Of a stretch of 64,000 bases of DNA, positions 16,498 to 41,802 are shown piece after piece. How positions within the stretch are numbered: position 1 is the stretch's first letter; each line of letters starts with the position of its first letter. Source of the stretch: Obrimoposthia wandeli (taxonomy: Eukaryota); the NCBI GenBank assembly GCA_977020255.1, contig CDROCS010000851.1, positions 434,001 through 498,000 on the forward strand. The letters run 5' to 3'. Below the pieces are notes generated by a model. It was given only the letters and a program-made list of their open reading frames with translations. It did no database searches and was not told where the DNA came from. The position numbers and the translations under genes were made by a program.

Positions 16498-16751
16498 TAC
16501 TTAAAAATAAGTATTTATAATTTGATAAATATGTTTAAACGTTCTTGTATCTATCTATCTAACAAAGACAGTCACGTACTGCATCTATATAGCAAATACT
16601 TGCAACTTTATGTAATCAATAGTAACAAGTCATGTACTACATTTATTCTTTTACATGTATGTATGTGTGTGAGTGTCTAACAAAGATAGTCATCAATACC
16701 TACAAAGATAGTCACGTACTGCATCTATATTGCAAACTATCTGCAACTTTA
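16498..16751 (+). repeat. Element A left inverted repeat (with internal direct repeats)
   Basis: Reverse complement of 28280-28521; aacaaagacagtcacgtactgcatctatat occurs twice. Confidence 0.9.
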
Positions 16752-16833
16752 AATAAAGACAAGTATTTTTGTAACATATATTCCTTAAAATCACAAAGGA
16801 GAGTAAAAATATATACATAAACATATAAAAAGA

Positions 16834-19800
16834 TTATACAATATCGTCCGGGTATAAAAAGTGACCATAGGCAACTGATTGGTTTTTCTCCACCCATTTG
16901 CGTTTATCATCGTTACTACTTAAGGCAATTTTACTTAACCTTACAGTAAAAAGTTGATGATTTAGCGAGCTTATACGTTGTTGTACACACTCGCTAACGT
17001 CACTCTCATAGACGGCTAAGTAATTAGAGTGTCTAATACTTGTCTGTCGGAGACTAATACCTTTAGCTCTCATTTGAGTTTTACCTTCTGTAGTCTGTAA
17101 GCTATATGATTTTGGACGAAGAAAAATCCCTTGCCTATAGCTAAATAATCCCATGCTCTCATCATTAAATTTGCCTATCGCTTTATTAAGCGTCGTATAA
17201 AGCGGCTGGGTTTTTGGAAATTTTGAGTTATCCAACAGTCCATCAGCAATCATAGCAGGTAACAGTGATTCTTGAACATTTACATTATTGCACTTCAAGA
17301 AAAAACTACCAGTGTCACCCGCTATAATTCTAATGTCACAGTTAAATTGAGCTCGATATTTCTCCAACTGCTCATATTGTAGCTCATACATACGAATTTT
17401 GCTTAAATCTAATTCTGCCTGGCCCATATAACTAGTAGAACTGCAATAAGGTCCGTATCGATTTCGATTGTCCTACGAAAGTGGGCTTTACTGCAATAGG
17501 TAACCAGCTTCTGTGGAGTATTACAAATCCGGAGGTTAATTCTTTTCATCAGATTCTCAATGAGTTTTCCAAATAAAGAATTCACCTTCAGTTTGTAATA
17601 ATCATGCTCGAAATCTGTTGTAGCTGCAGCTCTTTTAAGAGAATTATCCTCAATATATTTTGAAAAAACAATAGTTTGTTCAAACTGTATTGCTCTATAT
17701 ACAAAATCTACCTTAGCACCAAGTCTAACGTACATTTGTAGCAATCTAGAATTCACAACATAATGTTTCTTAGGGTAATGCGTTAATAATAATTTTTCAG
17801 TCTTATACCCTGGTGGACGCTGTTTAATTGGAGCAAGGAGAAGATCGTCGAATTTATTATGTAGCTCATTGAGAATGGATAAATCTATTTCCAATAAGTG
17901 AGCGAAGCGACTACAGGATAAATCTGCTGATTTTAACCTGGAAATAATATTCCCAACTCTAACCGATCAGTCACCCAGGAAAAGTTACCACAAGGTAAAA
18001 ACTGGGACATGGCCCACCCGTACAAGTTATTTACATCAATGTACAAAAGTTCAGTATCATTGATGGCGTCCACTTTGTGTTCATTCACGAAGGTCATGCC
18101 CCCACGAATCCCGGAGCGGAAGAGACGGACATCTCCGGATCCTGGATTAGCTCGACTTGTACAGGAGGAACAGAAGAATCCAGGCAAAGCAGGGAATTGA
18201 AAGCACTCGCGAAAGTCAGTCCTGGAAATAAAACATTTATTAAAATCATTACTTTGTGAAAATTATTACTTTGTGAAAATCATTACTTAGTGAAAAGTTA
18301 CTTAATAAAAATTTACTTAGAAAAAATTAGTAAAATACAAACCAGGGATGGAGAAGAAATTGAGCGGCTACAATCCATCGTCAGCAATGGCCTTGATCCG
18401 GAATGCTGTAAACACATCTGCTAGAAGGTAGACGTCCATCTTCATATAGACCAGCATATAGTCCCAGAGCGATGAGCAGCCGCTCTGAGTCCAGACCATC
18501 TTCGCCATCTCATATTGTGCTGGCTTGATCTTTTCATCCCACTTTGGCGGTAAGCTGGTGATTACACGAAAAGCAGTCTCGATACTGCCATATCGTATGG
18601 GAAGATTCCCTTGGCGCTCACTAGATGTTGCGGGAAGACCGAATGTGTAAGAGGAGTCACACCCAGGTTTTCCACAAGTTTTTCAAGCCCGCTGTTCAAA
18701 AATTGCTAGGAATCTATAAAGTGAATATGGACTCCTCCAATATACACCATCATAGCCCGAAATTTATATGTTGATTAAGGTATAACAGATACATTCCAGT
18801 CAGGCAACTTGCACAGTGCGTGTTTCAATATGTGGTGCATATCATAACCCATCAGATTATGAAAAATGACGGGAAAAGATCGATTGAGTCTCCTTGATAA
18901 GTTACATTTCGTATGCGATGCTCCAAGGTACTCGCCCGTCATGTGATCGTGATCTCGAACTTTGTTTGTTAGTTTCTTCTTACACAGGTAACAGATTCTT
19001 GCGGCATTGAAACTCGATACTTGTTCCTGTGTAAGTTATCGCATCATCTCGATCGCATGATTTTTGTACCACGGGAGAACAACCTCTTTCGCCAAGTCCT
19101 CTAATTTCTGCAAAAAGGATACCAGACAAAATTCTTCGGTAAAGACCGAGTAATTATGTGTGTACCCTGACGTGGCTGTAACGGGAGACATGAGCATGCG
19201 GCCGAGATTGAAAGCTGAATCTGATGATGTATTCCATGCGGCGGCAGCACAGCCTCAAAGTCCACGTAAACAGCAAAAGACGGAGAAATCATTTTTGAAA
19301 AGTCCTTAAACTCAATATGCTTCTCTGTAGGCAGTGAATAAAGTGCGTATGATCTAAATTCATCCTGCAGAGCGGAACGTGTTTGGCGTAATTGATTGCT
19401 TTCTGGAACCCATAGAGACACTTATGGCACCAAGTACACCGAATGCAATTAGATACACCTTTGTTCCTATAATTAAGCAGCCTATTGAGTTTAGGAATAC
19501 CAAGATAATGAAAATTATCATTATTTTCTAAAAGGAGAAGATTGATTGGCTTAGCGTCCGGGTTTGTGGTTCTGTACATGACATCAACATAGGGATTTTT
19601 GAAGATATCCCTATCCGTTTGCACATTTGAAAACCTATTGAATGTAAATACTTTGATTGGGAGAGATGGATTTTTTTTCTCAAATCCCGGTATATTACAT
19701 AAACGCATCGGCATCTCATTCTCATCAAAAACTAATTGACTCAAAAGGGCATCATATTGATTAACCCTATGAGGATTAGAGCGAAATACTTCACGGTAAA

Positions 19801-20839
19801 GTACAGCTAAGATGCTGTAAAGGAAACAAAAGGTGTTAGAGTTCTGCACATTGATAACGCAATGTGAGAGTGCTAACTCAGATGGAGTAGGTATATAACT
19901 ATTCCCCTGGAGATAGTTCATTGTTGTTGTTTTAGTCACAACAAACGAAATCTCCAGGAAGCGGTTCACTATCCAAGTACTACTACTCTGGGAATAATTC
20001 TCAATCTTCTTTTTGATCCCATCTACTCCATCATCTATGGGGAGCCCTCTATTGGAAAAATTCCAAGCGCGTGTTTCTCCAATATTGGAAAATTCAACAC
20101 GCACCCCGAATTGTACCTTACAAGTCGCAAACTTGCTGACTGTATCCCTTAAGCTAGTCAAAAGTGATTCGGTAACTTGTAAATCAATGACATTGTCATT
20201 AGAAACATCTAATGAAAATGTCTCAATCGTGCCCCGAAGACTAGTTTTTCGCTTAACAGCATCAACCCTGGGCAACTTCGCAACAGAGCTACCTGAAGTG
20301 GGCATAACATTTCTCTTGCGGGTAGATGCTGGTAACGGCGCGGGATCATACCAACTGTTGATGGAGGAGGCACAACTTGAAGCATAGTAAAATGTACAGC
20401 AAATGGTGGAGCAGCAATTGGCGCAGCAATTGGAGAAGTAATTGGTGCAGCAACTGGGGCAGCAGCAAATGGAGTAGATAGTGGAGCAGCAATTGGGGCA
20501 GTAACTGGCGAAGAAGCAGCAACCCGATCTTGAGAAATGGAAGCAGTAGAAGCAGTCATATTACTGTGAGCTCTATCCTGGAAGATGGCCTTCTTGCCAC
20601 GTTGCTGGAAATATCGTAGATGGGTGCGATGACGCGCTACAAACTCCAACCAATCAATCTCCTCCGCGGATAGATATACTGGACAGTCGTAGAAGAGTTG
20701 TCCATTGAACTTTGGCTCAAAGTAGCTCTTCATTTTCAAATCACATTCCTTGTGACTCTCCTCTAAGCATAATCGTTTATTCATGTTGCAATTCTAGAAA
20801 TATATTAAAATATCAGAAAAATAACAAGAAACTTACCAT
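16834..20839 (-). pseudogene. pPolB: Protein-primed family B DNA polymerase with N-terminal Cys/His domain and EndoVII/HNH insert; two predicted introns; frameshifts and stops
   Basis: VYVDFE (ExoI), CYLC..VRDHDHMTG..GASHTKCNL, FHNLMGYD (ExoII), IRGG, YIDVNNLY, KLKVNSLFGK, AGDTGS (mutated YxDTDS), RAKG. Confidence 0.93.
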
Positions 20840-20884
20840 TTTCAATTTTGTTTATAATAGAGAGTTAATTGTTGATTGATGCTT

Positions 20885-20976
20885 GCTTTTATACTATTTT
20901 CGAGCTAGTATTCAGCCAATCAGATTCATTAATTATTTAAACCAATCAGATTAATTTATTATTTAAACAAATCAGA
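20885..20976 (-). promoter_or_regulatory. Candidate pPolB promoter: TATAAAA plus three tandem CCAAT-like boxes
   Basis: ccaatcaga at 20916 and 20942, caaatcaga at ~20968; TATAAAA ~50 nt upstream of ATG 20839. Confidence 0.45.
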
Positions 20977-20988
20977 ATTGAAAATAGT

Positions 20989-21501
20989 TTACTGATTAAT
21001 GTAAGTAGTTGATTTTTCATTAATATTTAAATAATCCAAAGTAGCTGCAAAGCATTTCTTGTATGCACAATGCTCCCCATGTTTAATATATGGACAATTG
21101 ATATTTGATGGATTTAATTGTTTTAATGTTTTCGAGTAATTTATCACTCTAAATTCAGGAAAATATTTATTGATTGTCTTTATTTTAGCTCCCTTATATT
21201 CATCCAAAACAAAGAAAATTGATTTGGATACATCACAACAATGTTTTATTTCCTCAGTTATTTATTTTATCTTGAAATAACTATTACCATCAACTAGTTT
21301 TAGTCGATGGTAATGCTTAATGAGATATCTATTTATTTTTCTTGATTTTCTATTCATCATGTCCCATATGGGTTGCATTTTAGAAACATAATGTTAAGGA
21401 TAGAAGATTGCATCCACATCCATTTTACATAGTTACTTTATTACAAATTCAGTATTATTATTATCAATAAAAGCTTCAAAATCAATAAAATAAACAGACA
21501 T
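20989..21501 (-). pseudogene. DEDD-exonuclease-like Polinton accessory protein (homologue of 39955-40407)
   Basis: IDFEAF..K*LC and CPYIKHGEHCAYKKCF; in-frame stops. Confidence 0.7.
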
Positions 21502-21532
21502 TTTTTATAGCAGTAATTTTATTTGATATTGT

Positions 21533-21916
21533 TTATATCTTTTGTTTATGCTTTAACCAAAGAAAACAGAGTTGTCCACATGACTGTGTTAAAACATTTT
21601 GATAACGTTTCTTACTAAAATGTACTTTCTTTCTAGAGTCAAGTACTGTAGCTACTAATTTAAAAGGGTAATATATCCCAAAGGGGACAAAAATAAAGTT
21701 TTCATTTTCTTTAACATGTATTGCAATCCAATGTTCATCACGCAAATTAGACGAATGTATATTGATTACATATCCACTTAAACGAGTCAAAGAGGGGATA
21801 TGATCAAGACTGTAGACTCCATTGAAACGCGAACCGAGTAGTTTTTTTCCGCTTTTTGTTATCTCGTCCGAACTAGATTATATATTAATTAATTAATTCA
21901 AACTGACTCACTTCAT
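21533..21916 (-). CDS. PRO: Adenain-like cysteine protease, spliced (exon1 21912-21916, intron 21873-21911, exon2 21533-21872)
   Basis: MNSDEITKSGKKLLGSRFNGVYSLD...EHWIAI...FVPFG...QSCGQLC; catalytic H and C present, D position reads V. Confidence 0.85.
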
Positions 21917-23111
21917 TTATATCTTCTTGTTTTTTATTGTTTTCATTCTGTTTATACTAGTACTGTTCATTGAAGTAATTTTGGTAATTTGAACCTCAGA
22001 ATCGAATACTCCATAGATTATAATATTAGTAGGATGTTCAAGTGCTTTTGTAAACTTGATTTCTACTTTAAAATTTCCCTGTTTAGGGATTTGAGCTCGA
22101 TTAATATCGAAATCAGGAGAGAGAACAAATGTGAACAGTGTATCTTTAAAATCAGTCATTGAAATTCCAACATTAGCATCCTTATCCAAATTAAAGATTG
22201 CACATAAGAAAACACATAATCATTATTTTCAAAGTCATTCGTATACGTTTCTTGATAATCAATATTTCGTGCAAGTTTAATTGAACTCCCATATGTCCCA
22301 ATTGAGAAACCTCATTTTTAGACTCACCTCCATAGGTAGAAGTATTTTGGAAAGCAATTAAAACAAAGTTTGGAAGTTGCATATCACCAAAATTCTGATT
22401 CTTGTAATAAGATAGTGCTCCTGTAGGGATAGCATGAGAAACAAGATTAGTTTTTCTGATAGGATAACATGCATTTTGCTTCTCCAACCATATTTGATGT
22501 GCAACGAGTACAGATGGTTCCACCTTTACTCTACGAACCAGCAGTTTTGCTTCCGTAATCTCAATTGCTGCTTTAATAGTATCATCGCAAACAACACTAA
22601 AACCTACTGGATTTCTCTTCATTCGAATATGTGCACTTACACCGGGTAAAAGATACTTTGGTTGATTAAAGAAATCCAAATGAAGACTCCCACAAAGTGA
22701 CAATACTTTAGATTTCGCAATCGAAGCTGTTCTTCTTTTTTCATCATCATCAAACCCAATTGCATCAATATTAATCAATTTCGTATCATTACCCTAATTC
22801 AGTAATGTTTCAATCATTGCTTTATGGGTGTAACTAGTATTATTTCCCTCAACTTTCACATTATTGAGACTGAGAATCACATGCTTGAAAAGAGTATGAA
22901 ACATGAAATTAGATGATTTGATAACCAAATCATCATCCAAATCACCTCCTCCTTTCTTTGTAACTTTCAATTGAACGAGAAATAAACTATCCGGAGAAGA
23001 TGTCATGTTAACCGTATTTGTTGGATTATTTTCTTCAAAACTAGCACTATCAATCACAACCCGAGGTATAGGTTTATCGAATATACACAATTCAGTTTTA
23101 GCACAACTCAT
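21917..23111 (-). pseudogene. MCP: Major capsid protein (double jelly roll), frameshifted
   Basis: Collinear with intact MCP at 38310 (ELCIFD, LDFFNQPKYL, LSPDFDI..GNFKVEIKF). Confidence 0.9.
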
Positions 23112-23422
23112 TTCTTAAAAATTGTTCCACCTAGTTTGTTTATACCAGATGCTTTAGATGTTTTCTTACGTTTAGAACCACTTCCATTTTGAGTTTTTTT
23201 CTAATATTCAGCTAGACTTGGAGTGGGAAGAAATTTCTCATCACCAGACAAGTATGTTGATCCAACATTAGCAATAAATTTCCCGAGTCGCTTGAGTAGT
23301 GAGAATGCAAAACAACCAAAAACTTTCATCCATCCTGATCCATACTGTTTTCCCACAAAATAAGGCAAATCACCTCCTTGCATGGGTTTACTATACGCAT
23401 CGATTATACTTGAATCAATCAT
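23108..23422 (-). pseudogene. Small Polinton core-like protein (GGDLPYFVGKQYGSGW), frameshifted
   Basis: Homologous to 37913-38317. Confidence 0.75.
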
Positions 23423-24437
23423 AATTTACGAAAATGAACCGTTAAACTTGTTTTAGCTCCGTAAGCAAATGTAATTAATCTTCTAGAATCATTACGTATA
23501 TTAACTTCAATATAGTTTATATAAGAAGAACTCATTGGAATATAAATTGGATTTTCAATTGGAATATGTATAACATCACCATACTTGTGCTTTTCCTGCT
23601 GAACCCAAATTTCTATTATTTATGGAAGTTTAGTTCCTCCTACGAATATTGGTTCAGTAATACTCGTGTAGATATAAATTTGATTATATGCATTAGTTAT
23701 TTTAGCCCCAACCTTTGCTTTGAAAACCTTATTTTTATTTTCAAATTCATTTTCATCAAAACCGATAATCGTAGCTAATGATTTATCCATAATAACATAA
23801 TATTTGATTTCAATTTGAAATGAATTAACTTATTAACTATTTTAAAGTTTTCAAATACATTCGGGAACACTGTTTTAAAATGTTTACACATGCTTTCACT
23901 ATCTGGAAAATGAAAAGCATTGGGAACTGAATATATTTTCCTCTCGCATTTAGTGAATCTGCTTTTTATCTTGAATGTAATTATCGGATACTTGATGTGT
24001 TTATCCATAATTCTCGAAAACACATGCTTTCCTTTTTCAGGGTTAGTTGGAAATCCATATTGTTCTGCAACAATTTCATAACTAAAAACTATTTCAAAAT
24101 TATCCCCTTGTCTTATAATTTGAATTCGATTCTTTTTATTTAAAAAGATTGTAAAATCATCGCCTGCCTTAATACGAGCCAAATCCATTTGACCCTTATC
24201 AAATAGTAAAGTCACATCAGTTACTTTATCAGCTTCTTGTTGAGTAATATATTCAATCTCAGTTTCACTTTGAATAGATAGAGGAGAGTAATTGAAAGAA
24301 AATTCCGTAAGAGCAGCTTCCCAAGCACCAGGTAAATTATTTGAGCTTTGATAATCAATACTAAAAGTATTAGCAGTATTATTCGGTTGAGTTAATGGCG
24401 AACCATTACTTGGTAATACAACATACATTGAGTTCAT
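23419..24437 (-). pseudogene. mCP: Minor capsid (penton-like) protein, frameshifted
   Basis: YVVLPSN..PNNTANTF..WEAALTEF N-terminus and YNQIYIYTSI..VGG, IEVNIRND C-terminus; homologous to 36858-37871. Confidence 0.85.
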
Positions 24438-25680
24438 TCTATTTGAGAAGTTAATATCCAACTAAGTTCAGTTTATCCATCCCACTTAACTCGATATTGT
24501 TTATGCTTTCTTCTCCCTTTTGTCTCTAAGATTTCTTGAATTCTATATATATTTGGTTTCTCAGGCAAGACTTGTAATTCCTCATGATAAAATTTACTTT
24601 TGATTATATTATTGCTATCATCCTCAATGAAATACATTACATGTTTATTATCAATTTTAGTTATACAAAATACTTCATCGCTCCAATTCTCTTTGAAATT
24701 CTTTATAAAAAGAGTAGTACTAATTTTAGAAATACGTACATAATCACCAACTTTATACTTGGGTTCCTTTACAACTTGACTTTAGTTACGGCGTTGCCAA
24801 ATTTCCATAGCATTTTCATCTGTAACATCAACAGGTCTCTTTCGGTTTAATGATGAGTGTTCACTATGATTGTATGCATGTATTATTTGAGGTAAAACAG
24901 TGACCCAATACTTATTTCCCTGCTTTGTGAAATACTTTTTCAATCGATCTCTCAATGTTCGATTAAAACGTTCAACTAAAGCAGCTTTATATTGGGAAAA
25001 TACTGAGTAATGATTAATATTATGTTTTTTCAATAATGCACTAACATGTTTATTATAAAACTGCTTTCCGTTTGGAAATTTCTTGGTTTTATTTCTTTAA
25101 TCAAAAGCTTCATTGCCTCTAAAATATCGTTACCAGACATAGACTTTAATGGAATAGCTCGTGAGAATCTGCTAAAGACATCAACACAAGTTAAAAGATA
25201 TCGATGACCACCGTTAATACTCGCATACAGAATCATTTCCATCAAATCTGCTTGCCATAAATCATTTGGACCGCTCGTTTTGATGATCTTGTTGGGAACC
25301 GACGTCTCATTGGTTTGTTTAAGCCAGGGTTTCTCAACCTTTTTTCACCACGGCCCCCTTTAGTTTGCAGCAAATTGCTGTGGCCCCCCTCTACTATGGA
25401 CAAAAAGATTACATCGTATACGTATTGTTTTCAATTATACTATTCTGTCATGGAAACATTCAAAAAGATAATCAATGAGAAAACTATATTTAAAAAATGT
25501 TAGTGTGACCCTTGTGCGTGTGCAGTGAAAACAGGGGTGTTAATTTTTTATTTTTGTTTGGCTCGTGTGGCCCCCTGGCAAATTGTGTGGCCCCCCAGGG
25601 GGCCCCAGGGCCCCCGTTGAGAAACCCTGGTTTAAGCTGTAAGCTAATTGATTTCTCAACCACGCCTGAGTTTCCAGAGG
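24434..25680 (-). pseudogene. INT: Retroviral-like DDE integrase with chromodomain, interrupted by a hAT MITE
   Basis: WQADLMEM, CVDVFSRF, FQTE, LVERFNRTL, YRVKWDG*. Confidence 0.9.
25325..25629 (-). mobile_element. Buster-type hAT MITE (305 bp), deletion derivative of the 6972-8111 family
   Basis: Same TIRs; 8-bp TSD GTTTAAGC (25317-25324 / 25630-25637); internal sequence shared with the 6972 copy in reverse orientation. Confidence 0.95.
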
Positions 25681-25899
25681 TTTCTTATGCCGATTCATGT
25701 TAGCCTTGACAGTTATTTTACCAGAAACTATTTTCTGTATCATATTAAGTAAATCATCAATTACAAAAGTAGGGAATGATTTAAGAATAGTTGGGCAGCG
25801 AATAGCAGGTGCACGCACGAGAGAATTGAAATAGGCACTAATCCTAGATTTCTTATTAACAATTATTTTCTTATTTGATTTTTGAGCAACCATTTTCAT
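25680..25899 (-). pseudogene. Small pX-like core protein, C-terminus deleted and fused to integrase N-terminus
   Basis: LKSFPTFVIDDLL homologous to 35358 and 30426 ORFs; GGF tail missing. Confidence 0.65.
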
Positions 25900-25959
25900 T
25901 GTACTTAAAACTGATTTAATCCATTTTTTAACTTCAGGTTTAACAGTTTACTTTTTAAA

Positions 25960-26128
25960 ATTTATCTCCGAGAAACTGGTTTCTTTGTTTGTTTATAGAC
26001 GCTAATTTTTGATGGATTGATTATATCAGTTTTAACTTTAAAGTCATCAGGACAATCTTGAGTAAAATCAATAATAATGTATCCATGAGGAATAGTAGTT
26101 GCATCTTGAAATAAATCAATTAGGAAAC
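25960..26128 (-). pseudogene. Packaging ATPase C-terminal fragment
   Basis: FLIDLFQDATTIPHGYIIIDFTQDCPDD matches the C-terminus of 34626-35255. Confidence 0.8.
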
Positions 26129-27024
26129 TTATATTATGTGTTTAAGTGGCCACATGGGAAAAGATTCCACGGAAATCATATCCGTTATGCAAACGACACA
26201 TTCGGGATTTGGTAAGAGGTATTCGAGATAATTTATACGATGTTTTGCTTCAGATTTTATTTCTAACGATCTTAAATCCATTATAAACTCATATATAGAA
26301 TCATATTTATTACCGAATGTTTTAAACCTATTAACTAAAACGGCTTTGATTCTATCGTGGCTATACTCACGTTTCAGCAAAACTATTTGACGAGTTTCCA
26401 TCTGAGCATCAATTTCATCATTACTAATATGATATTCCACAATACATCCGTTCTTGATTCCCATACTAGATGCTTTACAATCTCGAGTATGAAAGATTCT
26501 TTCGGGCATAGTATCAATAAACTCTTTCAGTTAGAAACCACATCGATAAAATCATTCCAAATATAGACATGTAGGAAAATCGACAATGTAGGTATTTCAA
26601 TATCATTAAAATAATTATTACGTACAATAACTACTTTATCTATTGGAGTTGAATCAAAATAAATTTCCTTGGTGTTGGAATCAATTATTAGTATATTTGA
26701 TACATTCATTTTCAAAACAAACGGACATGTTGGGAAATATAGCATATGCTGCTTCATTGGTTTCAGATCGTACTCCCATTCCGATATTCCTCCCAGACAG
26801 TAAACACACATTACATTATCTTTCGAATCATCGTGCTTATAAAATCCTGCTTCTGCTACAGCTTTCTTATCCGCTAGACCAGTAAACTTTGCTTGTAATG
26901 ATTCTAATCTTCTTTCTTCATATATCATATTTTCATTTCTTCTTGAAATCTTTTCAAAACACCGTCGTCTAATGCTGAGTTCTCCATTTTGCGAAACATA
27001 ATGTGCAATAAATTTAGTAGTCAT
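26129..27024 (-). pseudogene. iap: IAP-like gene: BIR domain plus C-terminal RING, frameshifted and truncated
   Basis: C-x2-C-x16-H-x6-C (CVYC..H..PTC) preceded by AEAGFY; CVVC..SF then PCGH after a one-base frameshift. Confidence 0.85.
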
Positions 27025-27033
27025 AACAAAATT

Positions 27034-27060
27034 GAATGAGGAAATTGTCTAGCTTATATA
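27034..27060 (-). promoter_or_regulatory. TATA box and TCATTC initiator upstream of the IAP gene
   Basis: TATATAAG ~20 nt upstream of TCATTC, then ATG at 27024. Confidence 0.4.
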
Positions 27061-27443
27061 GTAAGTGAAATCTATTTTAGTAACATTCTTAGTTTTTACA
27101 AGAAATGTCATGTGATGTCTTTGTCTTAAGAATAAAGCAGTATAAACAATATTTTGATAATGATTTTATTGAAAATGAATAATCAAAATAATCAAAGTAG
27201 AGTAGAGTATATAGGTTCTGGTAGTAATTTATATTCTAATATGAATTAGAATAGAAATAATCAGAGAGAAAATATTAATCCATCAAGTCAAACAATAACA
27301 AGTCCTACGCGCGTAACCGAAGAACGTAAGCCCTTTAAGGATATGACTAATACTAAACGATTTTCATAAACAAGAATGTCGACCAATTAGAATTGAGCTT
27401 TAGAGGATAAACAATTGAATATTTCAACTTATAATTGTAAATA

Positions 27444-27830
27444 TGAATTTTGAAAGCTATATCAACCTATGCATACATATTATGGATATGAGATGCATTT
27501 TTTGAAGAAAGCTCATAACTATAATTTTATTTTTTCTGTCAACACCGAGCCGTTTAAATTTGATTTTGAAGTATCACATTTGACATCTGTGGATAAAGAG
27601 AGAATCAATATTATCTTGACTCAAATAGGAAATAACTATGCGCTTCAGGAAAACAAATTCATAATCAAAGGATAAACTGCCACTTTCAAGCAGGAGAATG
27701 GAACAATATTCGAAGGACCTCATCCTAAAGTAGAATGGATTCTCTCAATCAGAATTCAAGGATGCAAGATCGATCCCAGTGGATTGGAAACTCCGATATG
27801 GAAAATAATTGAAGCTGTTAGAGTTGACTA
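27444..27830 (+). pseudogene. Uncharacterised Polinton protein, homologue of 34170-34544
   Basis: YYGYEMHFL ~ YYEYDMFFL; WILSIRIQGCK..TPIWKI ~ WMLEIKILGYK..TLIWRI; frameshift and stop. Confidence 0.6.
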
Positions 27831-27968
27831 ATACATTTTTGTGTCTTTATTTGTATTATTTTATTTTATATATAAACAATAGTGATACTTTAATAATATT
27901 TATTATGAAAATGACTAAAAAAACCTACTAAATCATTAAAGTCAAAAAACACTAAGGTTAAAAAGACT

Positions 27969-28232
27969 ATGAGTAAAAAGACTATAAGTAAAAAGAAAAT
28001 CATGGAAGTTTTGGGTATTCATATGGTGGTAGGAAATCTTTTAGGTGGATGGTTTGGTGGAGTTGATAAAAAAGCTATAAAACATAAAAAGAATGTGGAT
28101 TATATTAGAGGTATACAAAAAGGGAATGGATTGCAAAAAGGGGATGGTATACAAAAAGGGGATGGTATGCTTGATATTTTTGTAAAATTAGATAAAGTTG
28201 TAAAAGCATTTGAAAAGGATCCTAGTTCCTAA
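27969..28232 (+). CDS. Small basic protein with QKGxG repeats
   Basis: Lys-rich; IQKGNG-LQKGDG-IQKGDG. Confidence 0.5.
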   Translation: MSKKTISKKKIMEVLGIHMVVGNLLGGWFGGVDKKAIKHKKNVDYIRGIQKGNGLQKGDGIQKGDGMLDIFVKLDKVVKAFEKDPSS

Positions 28233-28279
28233 CTTGGTAGAAAACTTTTACTAAAATCTCCAAAGAGTTTGTAATTACA

Positions 28280-28521
28280 TAAAGTTGCAATATAGATGCA
28301 GTACGTGACTGTCTTTGTAGGTATTGATGACTGTCTTTGTTAGACACTTACACACATACATACATGTATAAGAATAAATGTAGTACGTGACTTGTTACTA
28401 TTGATTACATAAAGTTGCAAGTTTTTGCTATATAGATGAAGTACATGACTGTCTTTGTTAGATAGATACAGGAACATTTAAACATATTTATCAAATTATA
28501 TAATACTTATTTTTATAAGTA
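28280..28521 (-). repeat. Element A right inverted repeat
   Basis: Reverse complement of 16498-16751. Confidence 0.9.
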
Positions 28522-28559
28522 GATAATTTAATTGAATTTAGTTTAAATAAATTATATAA

Positions 28560-29034: not shown

Positions 29035-29262
29035 CACATGTACACAATTCCGTATCACGAATTGCGCAATTCAATGTTCTCCAAGAAGATTTGAGGTATG
29101 AGTATTGACAATATATCCACCAGGCACTAATGTTGGGATTTTTTCCATCGTGTATACACTCTTAAATTGCGGTCCTAGCAACAAACTAGTTATTTCATTC
29201 ACTTGAACAGTACTTTAGGTTAATAAAATCGTTAAAAAATTAAATTAAAAAACACATTTCAT
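29035..29262 (-). pseudogene. PRO: Protease 5' part with decayed intron (29213-29257)
   Basis: ATG AA...AG T ACT GTT CAA gives MNTVQVNEI..FKSVYTMEKIP..GGYIVNT..GEH*IA. Confidence 0.75.
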
Positions 29263-30420: not shown

Positions 30421-30425
30421 TTTGT

Positions 30426-31643: not shown

Positions 31644-32362
31644 AGTAGGTAAAAGGATGAAGTCTAAGCCACTTGACCCCCCCTAAAGGGTGTCACACCA
31701 TAACGGTGTCTTGCCACACCATAAGGGTATATGTTGCCTCACCTCAGGTGAGGCAACATATACCCTTATGGTGTGACACCCTTTAGGGGGAGGCGGGAGG
31801 GGGAGGGGAGGGGGAAGGATAGGGGGGTCAAGTGGCTTAGACTCCATCCTTCTTTGATATACCACTATGGTCGTCCATAGGTTAAAGGGTCAAGTGGCTT
31901 AGACTCCATCCTTCTTTGATATACCACTATGGTCGTCCATAGGTTAAAGGGTCAAGTGGCTTAGTCTCCACCCTTCTTTTTGAGATATACCACTATGAAA
32001 GGGTCAAGTGGCTTAGTCTCCACCCTTCTTTTTGTGATATACCACTATGAAAGGGTCAAGTGGCTTAGTCTCCACCCTTCTTTTTGTGATCTAGTCTCCA
32101 CCCTTCTTTTTGTGATCTAGTCTCCACCCTTCTTTTTGGTTAACCACTAATTCAAAGGGTCAAGTGGCTTAGTCTCCAACCTTCTTTTTGTGATCTAGTC
32201 TCCACCCTTCTTTTTGGCTAACCACTAATTCAAAGGGTCAAGTGGCTTAGTCTCCACTCTTCTTTTTGTGATCTAGTATCCACCCTTCTTTTTGGCTAAC
32301 CACTAATTCAAAGAGTCAGGTGGCTTAGTCTCCACCCTTCTTTTTGTGATTTAGTCCATAAT
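31644..32362 (+). repeat. Element B left TIR: palindromic terminal ~210 bp plus tandem tagtctccacccttctttt units
   Basis: Matches reverse complement of 41329-41802; perfect hairpin 31715-31775. Confidence 0.95.
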
Positions 32363-33584
32363 AATGCTTTTCTAATGACAAATCGGTTTTGAAACCATGT
32401 AAACACTTTTCACACCATTTTCTGCTAATTCTAGTCGTTCCAGTTCGAATATTTAATAGCCGGTTAAGACAACTTATTCCTATATAATGAAACCGTTCCT
32501 TGGATTCTAGTAACAATAAATTAACTATAGTTCCTTCCTTCATTTTTGATTTGTATGCAACATCGATATAAGGATTCTTGATAACATCAGTTTTTGATTC
32601 TTTTTCACTTACCTCGTTGAATATGAATACATTTATTATTATACCAGGATTTTGCCGTTCAAATTTTGATATATTTGATATTTTCATAGGCATGTCTTCG
32701 GAATTATATACAAAATCATTTAAAAATCTTTCATAGTTGCTTGGTCTATTTCTATGTGAGTCTATTTCATTATATTTAAGTATTGACAATATTGCATAAA
32801 TAAAGCAAAGATTATCAGAGTTTAGAATATTTATGACTGCTTTAGATTTTGTAAGAGAATTTGGTGATTTAATATATGAATGACCTGACAATGCACAAAT
32901 TTGACTATATTTAGTAACAATAAATGCATATTCAAGTATATTCATCAATTTCCAACCACTACCCTTTTCTGAATATTCTTCAACTTTATTTTCCATTGTA
33001 TCTTCCATTTCTGAAATTATAGCATGTGAAAAAATCATTGCTCGATGTGAAGCATACCATTCTTTAGTTTCTCCATCATTCTTTTCAAACCTCATTCTAA
33101 TGATGTATTGTATCTTTGCTTTTCCCATTAATTGCACTATTCTTTCTAGTTCGTTTAATAATGAAACTGGAACCTTAAGACTTACAAGATTGAGATGATC
33201 TACTTTCATGGATATCATTGAATAACTATTTTCTAACGATGTTTTAGTATGTATATTGTCATTTATTTTACGTTTTCGTGACGGAGTAGGAGCTGAAATT
33301 ACTATGTTTGATGGTACATTAATTATATCAGTTCTTTTGCTTAAAGCCGGTACTTTAAATAATTTTTTCTAACTAACATTTTCATATTCTTTTAAATGAC
33401 TAACATGTCGACTATAAAATAAGTTGTAATCAACATTTTCAGTGCTTAAACATTGTGGACATATGAAATAATTTATCCTTTTGTATGAATAACCATAATA
33501 TTTTTTCATTATATCATGACATTCTTGAGGATTAAAATGTGTATCCGAATAACAAAAATTTGAATAAGTTTTACATATACTCAT
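32325..33584 (-). pseudogene. pPolB: pPolB N-terminal region only (Cys/His domain and terminal-protein region), truncated at the TIR
   Basis: Collinear with A 19289-20793 (YIKSP..AVINILNSDNLCFIYAILS, NPYIDV, FHYIGI..LNRLL, WCEKCLHGF); in-frame TAG at 33369-33371. Confidence 0.85.
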
Positions 33585-33689
33585 CTGATGATATGATTGA
33601 TTTGATTGGACTTGAGATATTGGTTGATTTGTAGACTGAATAAAAAAATATATATATATAAATACAATAATTTAATTATTTTACTTACA

Positions 33690-34154
33690 ATGTTAACAAA
33701 TATTAATTATAAAGGAATTTGCTTAGATGATGTATCCAAATTAAAATTTCGAACACGACCAGAACAATACGTTTATAAAGCCAAAGATTATACAATACTT
33801 ATTTTTAGAAATAAGAAATGCAGGATTATGGGATGTAAGGTACCTATTAAAAATATTTCTTACCCTTTAAGAATAAATATACTTGGTATTCAATCAATTA
33901 CGATATGTGAAAATTTAGAACAAAGTTTCAATCTATTTAAATTATCGAATGTATTACGTAATGCATGTTCATTTGACCCTGAGGTTTTCCCAGGCTTAAG
34001 ATTAAATATTTTCAATCCATTGTGTGTAAATATTTTCACATCTGGAAAGGTCGTAATTTTAGGTCTTAGAAATTTAGATTTTCAAAATCAAGTTAACGAT
34101 ATTATGACATACATTAAAAATAAATTATATAAATACGAAACAATTTCTAATTAA
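33690..34154 (+). CDS. TATA-binding-protein-like protein (154 aa)
   Basis: Two TBP-like repeats: TILIFRNKKCRIMG and SFDPEVFPGLRL..VNIFTSGKVVILG (cf. YEPELFPGL..LIFVSGKVVLTG). Confidence 0.85.
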   Translation: MLTNINYKGICLDDVSKLKFRTRPEQYVYKAKDYTILIFRNKKCRIMGCKVPIKNISYPLRINILGIQSITICENLEQSFNLFKLSNVLRNACSFDPEVFPGLRLNIFNPLCVNIFTSGKVVILGLRNLDFQNQVNDIMTYIKNKLYKYETISN

Positions 34155-34169
34155 ATCATTCAATTTTAA

Positions 34170-34544
34170 ATGTCTTATAAAGCCGTTCAAAAGTATTACG
34201 AGTATGATATGTTCTTCTTGGCATCTGTATGGATTCAACCAATGACATTATCGAAAACTTTGTACAATTACCGAGTCTCTGATTTTGACGACAAAGACAT
34301 TCAAAAATTCAATGAAATCGTCAAATATTTGAAAATTGATGTCGAACTTGAGAATGAGGGTATATTTATGCGCGGAGATAAGTGCAAATTTTATGATTGT
34401 GGTGGAACAAAGATTTCGGATATTCAAGAAGATGGAAGAAGTTGGATGCTCGAAATAAAAATTCTCGGATATAAAATAAATAAACAGAATGAAACAACTC
34501 TCATCTGGAGGATTCATACAGCGACCGAATATTTTGATGTTTAA
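34170..34544 (+). CDS. Uncharacterised Polinton protein (124 aa)
   Basis: Intact ORF with a homologue in element A. Confidence 0.7.
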   Translation: MSYKAVQKYYEYDMFFLASVWIQPMTLSKTLYNYRVSDFDDKDIQKFNEIVKYLKIDVELENEGIFMRGDKCKFYDCGGTKISDIQEDGRSWMLEIKILGYKINKQNETTLIWRIHTATEYFDV

Positions 34545-34625
34545 TAAATATTTAATAAAATGTTGTTATTGTTATAAACATGTACTTATTCTGATATATT
34601 TATTTTATATTAATATTTATATATA

Positions 34626-35255
34626 ATGTTATTAACAAACAATTCAACTTTTCAAGTAGTAGGACCAAGTGGTAGTGGAAAAACTTTATTTGTTTGTAAA
34701 TTATTAAATTCAAAAATGTTTAAAAATAAATTTAATAAAATATATTGGCATCAAGGTGGTGATGGAGAAGCTGGTTTAACAAACCAAGAATTTAATAAAA
34801 TAAAAAACATTAAGATTATTAACGGTTTTGATGAAAATTGGACGACAAGACTCGTAAAAGGTGATGTAATTGTTATTGATGACTTATATCAAGAGGCTAA
34901 CAAAGAATCTGATTTTAATGATTTATTTACAAAAATTGCAAGACATAGAGAAGTTACTGTAATTTTTATAACCCAAAATTTATTTCATCAAGGAGGAAAT
35001 CATCGTACTCGTAATCTTAATGTACATTATTTGATTTTATTCAAAAATCCTAGAGATCAGACAGTGATAGATTTTATTGCTCGTCAAGCATTTCCTCATA
35101 ACAAGAGTTATTTAATTGATGCGTTTCATGATGCTACATCTTTACCTCATGGTTATTTATTTTTAAATTTTACTCAATCATGTCCTGATGATTTAAGAAT
35201 TGTTACTGATATATTTAACCGTAATGGTATTACAGTCTATAAACAAAATAAATAA
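34626..35255 (+). CDS. A32/FtsK-like packaging ATPase
   Basis: GPSGSGKT, VIVIDD, IFITQNLF, LFKNPRD. Confidence 0.95.
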   Translation: MLLTNNSTFQVVGPSGSGKTLFVCKLLNSKMFKNKFNKIYWHQGGDGEAGLTNQEFNKIKNIKIINGFDENWTTRLVKGDVIVIDDLYQEANKESDFNDLFTKIARHREVTVIFITQNLFHQGGNHRTRNLNVHYLILFKNPRDQTVIDFIARQAFPHNKSYLIDAFHDATSLPHGYLFLNFTQSCPDDLRIVTDIFNRNGITVYKQNK

Positions 35256-35274
35256 TAATAATGTTTTAAAATAA

Positions 35275-35400
35275 AATGAATTTTAAAAAGAGTATTCTTA
35301 AACATAGCAAAAGGACAGATAAAGATGAAGTTAAAAAATTAATAAACACTGTATTATATGATCGTAATAATATTGAATTTTCAAAAAGTTTATTATTTTA
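35275..35400 (+). CDS. Small basic ORF (41 aa)
   Basis: KDEVKKLINTVL ~ KPEVKKWIKSVL in A; a basic ORF occupies the same position in C. Confidence 0.4.
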
Positions 35401-35687
35401 AAACCTTAATTGACGTACCAAAAACGAATAAAATGAAAATGTTGAAATCATTTCCAATTTATGTAGTTGATGATTTAATAAAAATTTTAAATAAAATAAT
35501 TTATGGTAAAATTAAACCTGATGATAATATTTTAAAATATAAAAATTCATTAATAAATTTAGCAAATTCACGTGGTAAAATTAATAAAAGAAACATTATT
35601 TATAGTCAAAATGGCGGATTCATATTGGCCCTACTGCCCGCTATAGCATCAGTAATAGCTAGTGTTATATCTTCAAGATGGGGATAG
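35358..35687 (+). CDS. pX-like small core protein (QNGG/FILALLPAIAS)
   Basis: GG followed by a hydrophobic helix, like adenovirus pX; homologues in A and C. Confidence 0.7.
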   Translation: MIVIILNFQKVYYFKTLIDVPKTNKMKMLKSFPIYVVDDLIKILNKIIYGKIKPDDNILKYKNSLINLANSRGKINKRNIIYSQNGGFILALLPAIASVIASVISSRWG

Positions 35688-35832
35688 TTGTCTTAATAAC
35701 GAAAATAATTACATTCATTCGTTTTATACAAACATATAAACAGATTAAAAATATATTTAACTTTTATAATAATGGGGATAAACAATACAAAGTTGTCTAA
35801 CTTATTTATAAATTTTAATTCTTCATGCTGCA

Positions 35833-36858
35833 ATGGAAAAGATTTGGAACAATCCAGAAGATCCAGACGGTTATACAGGGTTAGAAAAATTGACAAAAAG
35901 AGTCAAACAATCAAAAACAAACACACAAAAATGGTTAAGAAATGAATTATCATATAGTTTGAATAAACCTTTAAGACGTAAATTCCCTACTAGATCATAT
36001 AAAACTAATGGTATTAATTCGTTATGGCAGATGGATTTAATGGAAATGATTCCTTATTCTTCAGTAAATAATGGATTCAAGTATATTTTAACTTGTATTG
36101 ATGTATTTAGTCGTTTTGCAAGGGCAGTTGGTGTTAAATCAAAATCAGGTATTGATTTATTACATGCAATAGAATCTTTAATTGTTGATGATGTACCAGT
36201 AAATATCCAAACCGATGAAGGTAAAGAATTTTTTAATTCACATGTTAAGAAATTATTTAAAACTGAAAATATCAAACATTATTCAGTATATTCTCAATAT
36301 AAAGCTGCAGTAGTTGAAAGATTTAATAGAACGTTAAGAGAACGGTTAAAGAAATATTTTATTAAACAAGGTAATAAGAAATGGGTGAATGTATTACCAA
36401 AAATTATTTATGCTTATAATAATTCTAAACATAGAGGTTTAGATGGTTTAAAACCTGTAGATGTAAATAATAAAAATGAATTTGATATTTTGTTGAAACA
36501 AAATCTAAAAGAAAAGAAAGTTAAATCTAAATATAAAATTGATGATTATGTTCGAATATCAAAAATAAGTACAAGTCCATTTATTAAAAATTTTAATCAA
36601 AATTGGAGTGATGAGGTTTTTCAAATTCATGATATTAATTATAAACAAAATCCAATAATGTATATTTTAAAAGATATTGATAACGTCATCATCAAAGGAA
36701 AATTTTATAAACAAGAGTTACAATTAATTGATAAACCTAAACTATATCGAATACAAGAAATTTTAGAAACTAAAGGTCGTGGTAAGAATAAACAATATTA
36801 CGTAAAGTGGCACGGATACTCTGAACCTTCTTGGATATTTGCTTCTCAAATTGAATAA
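35833..36858 (+). CDS. INT: DDE integrase with C-terminal chromodomain
   Basis: WQMD, QTDEG, VERFNRT; YYVKWHGY..SW; intact 341 aa. Confidence 0.96.
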   Translation: MEKIWNNPEDPDGYTGLEKLTKRVKQSKTNTQKWLRNELSYSLNKPLRRKFPTRSYKTNGINSLWQMDLMEMIPYSSVNNGFKYILTCIDVFSRFARAVGVKSKSGIDLLHAIESLIVDDVPVNIQTDEGKEFFNSHVKKLFKTENIKHYSVYSQYKAAVVERFNRTLRERLKKYFIKQGNKKWVNVLPKIIYAYNNSKHRGLDGLKPVDVNNKNEFDILLKQNLKEKKVKSKYKIDDYVRISKISTSPFIKNFNQNWSDEVFQIHDINYKQNPIMYILKDIDNVIIKGKFYKQELQLIDKPKLYRIQEILETKGRGKNKQYYVKWHGYSEPSWIFASQIE

Positions 36859-37871
36859 TGTCAAAATATATTATTTTACCTAGTAATAGTTGTCCAAGTA
36901 CTCAACCTAACAATACAGCCAATCAATTTACTGTAGATTGAGAAAACTCTCTAAATTTAGATGGTGAATGGGAGGTTGCCTTGACTGAATTTGTATTTAA
37001 TTATACTCCTTTAACAATACAAACTAATTCAAAAATACTTTATAAAACGGAAAAGATAGAAATGAAAACTTTCGATGTATCTTTTGCAATTTTAAATGGA
37101 TTAATTTTTAATAATTTAAATACTGTTTTCAATTTCAAAATTACAAAGGGTCAAAAATTAGAAATAAGTACAATTAACAGTATTCATCGAATGTTGTGTA
37201 AATTCGAAACTTTAGAAGAATCAAAAATTATAGGTTTTAATGAAATACAAAAAATTTCTAGTCATGTTATAACAAGTGATGAAATTGTTGACATAAATAA
37301 AAATATTCATGCTAAAATGAGAATTACAATTTATTATTTAGCTGAATATGAATACGAAATAAAATTTAATCAAAATTATTTGATACAAGATAGTTCTTCA
37401 TTATGTAATATTATAGCCAGTAAATGTAATGAAATTTTTAAAAGCTGTAATATAGATTCAGACGGATTATTTGATATTTTATTAAAGAAAAATGTAAAAT
37501 CAGTTTTATTTGACGAAAAACTTGCATCTTTATTAGGTTTTAATAATGTTTTCTTTGAGAAACGAATTAAAGGTTTTCAAAAACCAACACTTTCTAGCTC
37601 ATATAATCAAATGTATATTTATACTAGTTTAACAGATTCTGTCTTAGTAGGATCTGATTATGTTCCACTGTTAAAGTCTATTTGGTTAAAATCATTAAAA
37701 TATCGATATGGAGATGTAGTAAATGTTAAAATTGATAATCCAATGTACTTGAAAATGAGAGATTCAAGTATTAATAGAATCGAGGTAAATATACGTGATG
37801 ATTCTGGTAATTTAATTCCATTTTCATATGGAGCAAAAATTAGTTTAACTCTTCATTTACGTAAAGTATAA
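36858..37871 (+). pseudogene. mCP: Minor capsid (penton-like) protein with one in-frame TGA (36939-36941)
   Basis: ATG overlaps INT stop (TAATG); LPSNS..PNNTANQF..WEVALTEF; YNQMYIYTSL, IEVNIRDD. Confidence 0.85.
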
Positions 37872-37912
37872 ACAATATAAATATATTTAAAATATAAATA
37901 TATATATATAAA

Positions 37913-38317
37913 ATGAATACATCAATTATAAAATTTTATAGCAAAAGTCAACAGGGCGGTGAACTTCCCTATTTCATTGGTAAACAATATGGATCTGGTT
38001 GGTATCAAACTATTTCTAGATTAGCTATTCCATTATTAAAAAAAGTTGGTTTATCAGCAGCTACAAGTGCTGCCAATGTAATTGGTGAAACGGTAGGAAC
38101 TGCGTTAACAAATCCAAAAAACATAATTTCATCTCTCAAAGAAAATACTATCAAAGAAGTCAAAACTTTGATTCCAAAATTAAAAAATAATGCTGTTGAG
38201 AGTTTAAATAAAGTCGCAAATTGTGTTGAACAAAATGGAAAGGGTCTTAAACGTAAAAGAAATAATTTAAATAGTATAAACAAACGTCTTAAAGGTACTA
38301 TTTTCCAAAATGACTAG
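37913..38317 (+). CDS. Small Polinton core-like protein (GGELPYFIGKQYGSGW)
   Basis: Homologue in A; basic C-terminus. Confidence 0.8.
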   Translation: MNTSIIKFYSKSQQGGELPYFIGKQYGSGWYQTISRLAIPLLKKVGLSAATSAANVIGETVGTALTNPKNIISSLKENTIKEVKTLIPKLKNNAVESLNKVANCVEQNGKGLKRKRNNLNSINKRLKGTIFQND

Positions 38318-39530
38318 TATAAAATCTGAATTGTGTATTTTCGATAGACCACTACCTCAAGTAGTGATTGAAAATTCAAGTTTTGAAGAAATATTTCCAA
38401 TCAATTCAATTACTGGAAAAAATTTAAATGACATAGAATTTAATATTCATGCATCTGAAGAAGATTATCTGGATTTGAATGATACTTTGTTAAATATTAA
38501 ATTAAAAGTTGTAAATGAAGATGGTACTGATTTAATGAAAGATAGTGATGTAACTCCGGAGAATTACATGTTTCAAACTTTGTTTAGAGATGTTATTCTA
38601 ACACTTAATAATGTAAAGGTTGAAGGAGGAAATGGAACGTATACTCATAAGGCTATATTCGATACTCTTTTGAATTTTAGTAGTGATACCAAGTATACTA
38701 ACCTTGAATGTTCCGGGTATGATGATGATGCAGAAAATCGTAAACAATGGATTAGTGAATCTAAAATATTTTCATTGTGTAATTCAATTAGATTAGATTT
38801 CTTTGATCAACCAAAATATTTGATTCCAGGGATTAATGTTCATTTGAGATTTATGAGAAATCAGCATAATTTTTCGCTCTATTCAGAAACTTCAAAACCA
38901 ATTATTCAAATTCTAGATGCTAGATTGTATGTTAGAAGAGTAAAAGTTGATTCTTCAGTAATGATTGGACATCAGTTAGGTTTGCAAAGTCAGAATGCAG
39001 TTTACCCAATTAGAAAAACTCAGTTAGTAACATATTCAATTCCTCAGGGTTCTTTGGAACTTAATAAAGATCAAATATTCGGAGACTATCGTTTACCCAA
39101 GTTCATTTTGATTGCTTTCAAAGATACACCTCAGGGTGGTAAGGAATACAAAGTTAAATCTTCTACGTTCAATACATTTAATGTTTCAACAATATCATTA
39201 GCTAGAAATACAGATTATCGAGAAACTTATAATCTAGATAATAACAATTTTTCATTAGCATATATGCAGTCAATTATTCGAAATATGAATATTTTAGATA
39301 AAAACGTGAATAATGGTATCAGATTTTCTGATTTTAAATCAGGAAGTTCGATTTTCACTTTTCTATTAGCACCAGATTTTGATATAAACACTACTCAAGT
39401 GCCTAAAACTGGTAATTTAAGACTTGAAATTAGATTTAATTCTCCTTTGACCGTTCCAACAAGTGTTTTGATTTACGGAATATTTGATTCCGAAATTCAG
39501 ATTACGAAAAATAAAACTGTGATTGTATGA
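38310..39530 (+). CDS. MCP: Major capsid protein (406 aa, intact)
   Basis: SELCIFD N-terminus, LDLNDTLL, LDFFDQPKYLIPG; size and position typical of Polinton MCP. Confidence 0.93.
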   Translation: MTSIKSELCIFDRPLPQVVIENSSFEEIFPINSITGKNLNDIEFNIHASEEDYLDLNDTLLNIKLKVVNEDGTDLMKDSDVTPENYMFQTLFRDVILTLNNVKVEGGNGTYTHKAIFDTLLNFSSDTKYTNLECSGYDDDAENRKQWISESKIFSLCNSIRLDFFDQPKYLIPGINVHLRFMRNQHNFSLYSETSKPIIQILDARLYVRRVKVDSSVMIGHQLGLQSQNAVYPIRKTQLVTYSIPQGSLELNKDQIFGDYRLPKFILIAFKDTPQGGKEYKVKSSTFNTFNVSTISLARNTDYRETYNLDNNNFSLAYMQSIIRNMNILDKNVNNGIRFSDFKSGSSIFTFLLAPDFDINTTQVPKTGNLRLEIRFNSPLTVPTSVLIYGIFDSEIQITKNKTVIV

Positions 39531-39903
39531 AGTAAGCTTATTGTATATTATATTCTTTATTTAAATTAGTACTTTAGAAATTCATAAATCCGGAAAAATA
39601 TTATTGAATAACAAATTTAATGGAGTATATTCATTGGATAAAATTCCATCATTAAAACCCGGAGGTTACATTATCAATACTAATACTTCAAATCTACCAG
39701 GCGAACATTGGATAGCAATATTCGTTGACAGATTCGAGATTCGAGTGTTTGACCCTTTTGGATTCTATTATCCTGCAAAGTTGGTGTCTACACTTGAAAA
39801 AGAAAACATTCCAGTCTACTATAATCGAGTTAAATGTCAGAATCCATTAACTAAAAACTGCGGACCTCTGAGTCTTTTATGGTTGAAACTTCAACACAAA
39901 TAA
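39527..39903 (+). CDS. PRO: Adenain-like cysteine protease, spliced (exon1 39527-39531, intron 39532-39569, exon2 39570-39903)
   Basis: MNTLEIHKSGKILLNNKFNGVYSLD..GEHWIAI..FDPFG..KCQ..NCG. Confidence 0.9.
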
Positions 39904-39954
39904 TTTTAAGTATAAACAAATATATCATTATAGTATTTTATTTTATTTTTTCAA

Positions 39955-41468: not shown

Positions 41469-41802
41469 ACTAAGCCACTTGACCCTTTGAATTAGTGGTT
41501 AACCAAAAAGAAGGGTGGAGACTAGATCACAAAAAGAAGGGTGGAGACTAAGCCACTTGACCCTTTCATAGGGGTATATCAAAGAAGGGTGGAGTCCAGA
41601 TCACTTGACCCCTCCCCGCTACCCCTCCCCGCCTCCTCCTCCCTAAAGGGTGTCATACCATAAGGGTATATGTTGCCTCACCGGAGGTGAGGCAACATAT
41701 ACCCTTATGGTGTGGTAAGACACCTTTATGGTGTGACATCCTTATGGTGTGACACCCTTTAGGGGGGGGTCAAGTGATCTAGACTCCATCCTTCTACCTA
41801 CT
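41329..41802 (-). repeat. Element B right TIR with hairpin (~41657-41712)
   Basis: Reverse complement of the left TIR with fewer repeat units. Confidence 0.95.

Follow-up and report, generated by a model that had tools for sequence, protein, structure and literature searches.

A putative short spliceosomal intron separates the start codon from the protease frame in one clade of Polinton-like elements

The window, which is the whole 64,000-nt stretch of Obrimoposthia wandeli DNA analysed here, consists of AT-rich eukaryotic DNA (22-41% GC) and contains three Polinton/Maverick-like elements, in the order A, C and B (Table 1). The elements have a common gene order: ATPase, a 113-aa gene, rve integrase, minor capsid, a 139-aa gene, major capsid, protease and a 157-aa gene. 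Element A contributes ATPase, integrase, minor capsid, 139-aa, major capsid, protease and 157-aa genes as well as pieces of PolB and a BIR gene. The rve integrase matches PF00665 in B (E 1.2e-10) and has homologs in A and C. The packaging ATPase (FtsK/A32) matches Pox_A32 (E 7e-6), and the B capsid homolog has an Atlas score of 0.98 with double-jelly-roll (DJR)-like clusters. Atlas clusters rich in arthropods are at most a hint at the host, which is likely an animal. A match to a protein-primed family B polymerase (PF03175, E 1.4e-4, below the cut-off) lies on a fragment in A, whose PolB pieces compare at 45-53% with those of the related loci L014, L016, L021 and L022.

The inverted repeats of B lie at 31644-32362 and 41331-41802. 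When compared with the AGT/AG end motifs and 6-bp target-site duplication of Polintons, their arms start with AGTAGG, the hexamers flanking them differ, and no end of this kind was seen in A, for which the 235-nt arms are the putative true ends. All three copies in the window are damaged. B and the loci L014 and L018 have uninterrupted reading frames for capsid, integrase and ATPase. The A and C families are highly repeated in one sample, where 72,407-96,099 contigs per contig set match positions 21000-29700 in four sets. The BIR gene of A encodes an inhibitor of apoptosis (26527-27048, minus strand, E 1e-12). The left inverted end of B (31644) adjoins the start of the ATPase gene of C (C 29050-31643), so B appears to be inserted into C. 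Other structural features of B are tandem repeats of 26, 52 and 78 nt in its arms and, close to the right end, a 671-nt duplication (40127-41097).

Table 1. Positions of the elements and of the protease-related features in the window
Feature	Position	Strand	Remarks
A, decayed Polinton	16502..28515	-	235-nt inverted repeats, 93.6% identity; ends approximate
B, element with long inverted ends	31644..41802	+	PolB truncated; stop interrupts minor capsid gene; ends approximate
C, partial element	29.0-31.6 kb		
A major capsid gene	21917..23120	-	Broken into three frames
A protease exon 1, coding part ATG AA	21912..21916	-	Directly 3' of capsid stop codon 21919-21917
A protease intron, putative, phase-2 GT-AG, 39 nt	21873..21911	-	Donor GTGAGT (6/6 against GTRAGT), end TCTAG, acceptor TAG
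A protease exon 2, 112 codons, adenain (Peptidase_C5) family	21533..21872	-	No Met; adenovirus proteinase 1avp match, E 4.6e-5
TATA-like TATAAACA, candidate protease promoter	21949..21956	-	ATAAAC starts 39 nt before protease ATG, within the final codons of the A capsid gene
Second start-codon intron candidate in A	20794..20839	-	ATG, then 43-nt GTAAGT...TAG (20836-20794); ~100-aa Cys/His gene upstream of PolB
B protease	39527..39903	+	ATG AA 39527-39531, overlapping capsid stop; 38-nt intron 39532-39569; exon 2 39570-39903, no Met
C protease remnant	29050..29262	-	ATG AA; 45-nt intron 29257-29213; exon 2 truncated; donor non-GT in this copy

On a reading of the sequence, A has a gene for a capsid-maturing protease in which a short intron of host type stands between the ATG and the remaining frame. 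The segment is 79% AT, and its donor itself gives an in-frame stop if it is left unspliced. Since the intron cuts the start codon off from the rest of the gene, the protease can apparently be obtained from spliced RNA only. From stop to stop, the protease frame is free of Met in both A and B. Exon 2 of A retains the His, Gln and Cys columns of the family, and Val occupies the catalytic-acid column, so this copy of the protease is probably inactive. The pattern ATGAAGTRAG-N25-45-AGY occurs three times in the window against 0.22 expected, a number reached in 1 of 100 shuffles, and two of the three matches are the A and B junctions. A group I or II self-splicing intron or other structured RNA was considered and rejected: Rfam gave no match to E 1 over 21700-22100, and the segment measures 39 nt, as against hundreds of bases.

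The ATG of B is out of frame with its exon 2 unless the 38-nt segment is removed; the B protease matches Pfam Peptidase_C5 below the cut-off (E 0.0024). Other C-family contigs of the one sample have a canonical donor, and the C copy in the window is an outlier at two donor positions. The protease bodies of A and B are 54% identical over 112 residues. Their intron interiors align no better than shuffled sequence (z = -0.9), and the interior of A against all 13 other intron rows gives z from -0.9 to 0.9. The preliminary description had read the A junction as ATG AA, a 39-nt GTGAGT...TCTAG segment and then the protease frame, and its coordinates and letters are exact. It had also claimed that A and B have the intron at the same position and in the same phase with unrelated interiors. 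Both points are borne out, the second by the shuffle alignment and the first by the common ATG AA|GT junction and the joined Met-Asn start.

Related loci were sought in a metagenome scan, which gave 41. In 37 of these the region before the protease is present; L024, L025, L039 and L052 lack it and were excluded from the counts. The same junction, ATG AA|GTRA...AG|Y, is found in 11 of the 37 informative loci, and a contiguous in-frame ATG is found in the other 26. Together with A, B and C the 11 loci make up 14 intron rows, or 11 distinct elements once L015, L019 and L027 are counted as near-copies. The five bases ATG AA are identical in 14/14 rows, and in all of them joining gives Met-Asn followed by the protease frame. 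Read unspliced, 13 of the 14 rows give Met-Lys-stop. Lengths range from 37 to 45 nt and fall into mod-3 classes of 6, 4 and 4 rows. L014 and L015, which are near-identical in the capsid, differ by 2 nt inside the segment, and both flanking frames stay open. One locus, L023, has a protease frame that is open upstream through another Met, and it could for that reason make a longer unspliced product.

Conservation is concentrated at the borders of the segment. Among the 11 distinct elements the acceptor AG is present in all and GT in ten (the exception is C), and donor positions +4, +5 and +6 are conserved in 10, 9 and 9. The donor matches GTRAGT at five or six of the six positions in 10/11. Interior columns mostly agree in 5-9 of 11 elements, in a background of 79-91% AT. 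No conserved branch-point motif was found among the 11 distinct elements, in which loose TRAY-type matches occur at scattered places and three have none. ATG-NN-GTRA has a frequency of 2.3e-4 per base in the sequences compared.

The joined start also agrees with the N-terminus of the protein family. A Met stands at the family start position, 14-23 residues before a GV(Y/F) anchor, in 97 of 142 scorable protein homologs, and Asn is the commonest second residue of these (30/97). The joined Met of A and of B lies 19 residues before the anchor. Nine further database proteins, known from protein records alone, begin with a hydrophobic AT-rich read-through followed by Ser at residue 2, which is what an AG|Y acceptor gives. 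Two otherwise identical proteins, P0008 with an internal start and P0179 with an MNT start on a short contig, could be the genomic and the spliced form of one gene. The codon position is constant and the splice signals are conserved, whereas the interior and the length vary freely; there is no other start, and joining restores the family N-terminus. For these reasons the 39-nt segment of A is, judged by its sequence, almost certainly a genuine major-type (U2-type, GT-AG) spliceosomal intron, and a shared, inherited intron of this type in the clade of A and B is well supported by the comparison.

The capsid tree places the intron in a single lineage. Among its 30 rows, all 11 intron rows fall in one clade of 13 (support 100/100), and the 17 rows outside this clade all have a contiguous ATG. 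The two remaining members of the clade, L021 and L022, are intronless and have ATG GAT directly after the capsid stop. With near-copies removed, label shuffles were as clustered as observed in 3/500. On this reduced set an intron-only clade is not rejected (AU p = 0.41), and the base of the clade is without resolution, so that both loss and early branching are compatible with the intronless state of L021 and L022. The protease tree (64 rows, 113 columns) is mostly without resolution and alone gives no single intron clade. P0019 and P0179 begin with MNT among close protease relatives; P0019 is placed near A and B in this tree (92/81), and its MNT start could reflect either a further loss or an RNA from which the intron has been spliced. 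Given L021 and L022 and these two MNT starts, the intron is dispensable or has been lost at least once.

The preliminary description took the intron to be ancestral and kept by selection, and each half of this stands in part. The intron is ancestral for the one clade. It is not ancestral to Polintons and is a gain of one clade, because the 26 loci with a contiguous ATG, and likewise the family position of Met in most homologs, speak against a wider presence and the intron carriers all lie within one capsid clade. A single gain in or close to the stem lineage of a Polinton/adintovirus-like clade, followed by inheritance, is quite likely. As for selection, it is visible in the splice signals, which stay fixed while the interior and the length drift, and not in the presence of the intron, which L021 and L022 do without. 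Precise intron loss is rare, so persistence requires no benefit. Most likely the intron persists through efficient removal and purifying selection on the splice sites while the protease is needed, and not through a function of its own. Among the 15 of 828 joints and 12 of 78 indels listed for the contigs of one sample (together with 40 of 623 substitutions), none excises the A intron, and intronless A copies may still exist in that sample.

A short motif upstream of the protease suggests how the gene may be transcribed. Against a background of 0.87 per kb, the sequence ATAAAC, usually in the form TATAAACA, precedes the protease ATG by 31-46 nt in nine of the 11 distinct intron elements and by 30 nt in L021. 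It is absent from the expected place before the protease in B and C. The motif also precedes the capsid ATG, by 32-47 nt, in 8/9 elements, and it is at most 75 nt from the 157-aa gene in 11/12. The protease copy of the motif is mostly spelled by the last Ile-Asn codons of the capsid gene, with A and L023 having it in other places. These codons are ATA-AAC in 8/8 loci against 0/11 other Ile-Asn pairs of the same capsid genes, a contrast inflated by common descent. From the position of ATAAAC in the nine elements, a separate protease transcript from its own promoter appears likely.

Several further features concern the same motif. In the form (T/G)ATAAAC(A) it occurs about 30-47 nt before the starts of the capsid, protease, ATPase and 157-aa genes, including 38270-38281 (plus strand), and often overlaps the last codons of the upstream gene. 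The outgroup loci L026, L028, L030 and L032 have a TATA-like motif about 70 nt before the protease ATG. The capsid C-terminus of A is about 14 residues longer than that of B (21917-21990, minus strand); the TATA-like motif lies in this extension, in which a 6-nt indel segregates among A-family contigs. A further gene of B (33606-34154, plus strand) has a TBP-like product (PF00352, E 8e-12) with homologs in L026, L028, L034, L035 and L039, and this protein could serve the TATA-like promoters of the element.

Taken as a whole, a spliceosomal intron gained once, inherited within the clade and removed by the host from a protease transcript is very likely the best explanation. Host RNA polymerase II would make a separate protease transcript with a short leader, directed by the ATAAAC about 30-45 nt before the ATG, from a promoter mostly hidden within the last capsid codons. 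A very short first exon, ending five bases into the coding sequence, would then be joined to exon 2 by the host spliceosome. Unspliced RNA would give only Met-Lys-stop, since AA|GTRA spells Lys-stop.

The AT-rich segment could instead be a mere spacer in a capsid-protease fusion that arises through frameshifting or through read-through of the stop (the 'Hexain' idea). Buck et al. (10.1101/2024.03.25.586562), in the section concerned, suggest possible -1 frameshift Hexon-Adenain fusions for adintoviruses, and two of eight longer homologs (P0184 and P0186) are fused capsid-protease frames. Both are distant from the present elements (33% and 21% to the B capsid). Each is a fusion in one frame, either natural or an annotation artefact, and one of them is named from a nematode. 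In the 11 elements exon 2 is in frame 0 relative to the capsid in two, +1 in three and +2 in six, and stops in the protease frame precede the acceptor in 10/11, so the length changes cannot be reconciled with a coding spacer, with frameshifting or with read-through. A slippery heptamer is present in 1/11, and a phase-2 GT within the last 30 capsid codons, as needed for an in-frame capsid-protease splice, in 1/10 loci. A fusion is extremely improbable on these data. It is very unlikely that the acceptor serves an upstream leader exon in the manner of adenoviruses and adomaviruses, or a non-ATG start, with ATG-AA-GT being incidental. Adomavirus late genes, in the part of 10.1101/341131 that describes them, do use a spliced leader and acceptors just upstream of each gene, and B and C are without a local ATAAAC. 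However, those acceptors precede an ATG, whereas exon 2 of A and B is without a Met and no row has one within its first 20 codons. In addition, ATG AA|GTRA invariably sits at the capsid stop, the position of the ATG in intronless relatives. Independent insertions at a favoured site, for example by introner-like elements, or chance decay would agree with the unrelated interiors, and introners are reported in maverick-polinton-like proviruses of dinoflagellates (PMC11957031, in the portion that treats these). But all carriers share a single position and phase and are confined to one capsid clade, with the clustering seldom equalled by label shuffles. The introns contain no repeats and no shared family sequence, and ATG-NN-GTRA is rare per base. 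Recurrent insertion or decay is highly improbable.

A different question is whether the intron is kept for a function, as an enhancer or splice gate governing when or how much maturation protease is made, with Met-Lys-stop the default product; long capsid transcripts would then give no protease by reinitiation unless spliced. The intron is retained across elements that are only about 50-60% identical in the protease, and the genomes concerned are compact, with no introns in the genes for capsid, integrase and ATPase. Another gene of A has a candidate second start-codon intron with ATAAAC upstream, and the donors are near consensus. The strength of the donors equally suggests constitutive removal. 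The stop follows automatically from AA|GTRA and needs no selection of its own, the interior holds no conserved element, and L021 and L022 lack the intron. A functional role is therefore doubtful, and simple persistence of the intron is the preferred reading. The corresponding idea that the clade controls virion maturation by splicing, with a buried promoter of its own and a five-base exon so that the protease is made only when and where the host splices the short transcript, is put forward as tentative. If it is true, a switch conserved across elements that are about half identical would be an indirect sign that these Polintons continue to form and mature particles from transcripts made in the nucleus, and in RNA data the junction would precisely mark active elements.

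Comparison with known systems brings out what is particular to the present elements. They resemble animal Polintons in the module of integrase, minor capsid, PW-like gene, major capsid and protease, and in the packaging ATPase, PolB and inverted ends. The core genes of Mavericks/Polintons are called intronless in the relevant passages of Barreat and Katzourakis 2021 (PMC8097293). Widen et al. (10.1101/2022.07.12.499685), in the passages on gene structure, likewise give intronless core genes with introns in cargo genes only, and PMC10120064 describes intronless Maverick or endogenous-virus core genes where it deals with them. The elements described here depart from the intronless core, as far as these published accounts give it, by a conserved protease intron after the fifth base. 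Adintoviruses, in the relevant parts of Starrett et al. 2021 (PMC8502044) and Buck et al. 2024 (10.1101/2024.03.25.586562), have in common with them an adenain, an rve integrase with a weak C-terminal chromodomain match, an FtsK/A32 ATPase and an IAP-like accessory gene. They differ in that no spliced adenain is mentioned in these parts of the main text; the frameshift Hexon-Adenain fusion proposed there does not fit this clade.

Splicing of virion genes has precedents. Virion genes of adenoviruses and adomaviruses, adenain among them, are expressed from spliced nuclear transcripts, and the protease belongs to the same family as here. In those viruses a non-coding leader is joined to acceptors before each ATG, which the portion of 10.1101/341131 on late genes describes for adomavirus, whereas here the intron would lie in coding sequence behind the ATG and a local promoter is likely. 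Dinoflagellate introners, from the corresponding part of PMC11957031, are also spliceosomal introns inside polinton-like elements. These are recent copies of intron-generating transposons and mostly postdate integration, in contrast to the one old inherited position here, which has no sequence family inside. No spliced Polinton protease appears in the relevant portions of PMC8502044, 10.1101/2023.08.22.554363, PMC12220804 and PMC11296320, or by word search in the searchable part of 10.1101/2025.02.07.637071. No description of this start-codon protease intron was found in the literature searched; Repbase entries and the supplementary maps of adintoviruses could already annotate it. As far as sequence can tell, the new part is real, and it consists in the specific layout, a clade-wide start-codon intron in a Polinton protease gene.

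Relatives among viruses and prokaryotes were also sought. No viral contig held a relative with the B protease or the B capsid. Eleven viral loci from the alignment scan were rejected as longer, unrelated-looking proteases matched on one motif. A motif scan of viral contigs gave 120 stretches, none matching the element proteins, and a single 19-residue match in prokaryote genomes was dropped.

These results bear on the question whether animal Polintons make virions. Intact splice sites combined with full turnover of the interior suggest that, throughout a deep clade, the protease gene has been needed, transcribed in the host nucleus and spliced. In RNA data, the junction of the two exons offers a cheap, DNA-proof assay of late-gene activity. 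In addition, the intron explains the junk or truncated N-termini that gene callers give for proteases of this clade, and surveys that demand intronless frames would call such elements broken. The effect is limited: it concerns one short putative intron, and any function beyond its being removable would be hypothetical.

Other short introns and unusual structures were noted in the same material. The homolog in B of the Cys/His gene with the start-codon intron candidate (33369-33671, minus strand) is contiguous, and the homologs in L012, L013, L021 and L023 have other short GT-AG introns. A GT-AG intron on the 43-nt scale, accompanied by a change of frame, interrupts the 157-aa homolog of L023 (L023:2920-3110), and L014 has two minor-capsid genes in tandem. 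Outside the elements, the window contains exons of a PTEN-like host gene with long introns (45376-45897 and 56001-56309, minus strand; PTEN_C2, E 3.5e-6), which presumably includes the phosphatase motif. A 353-nt tandem duplication lies at 55177-55860.
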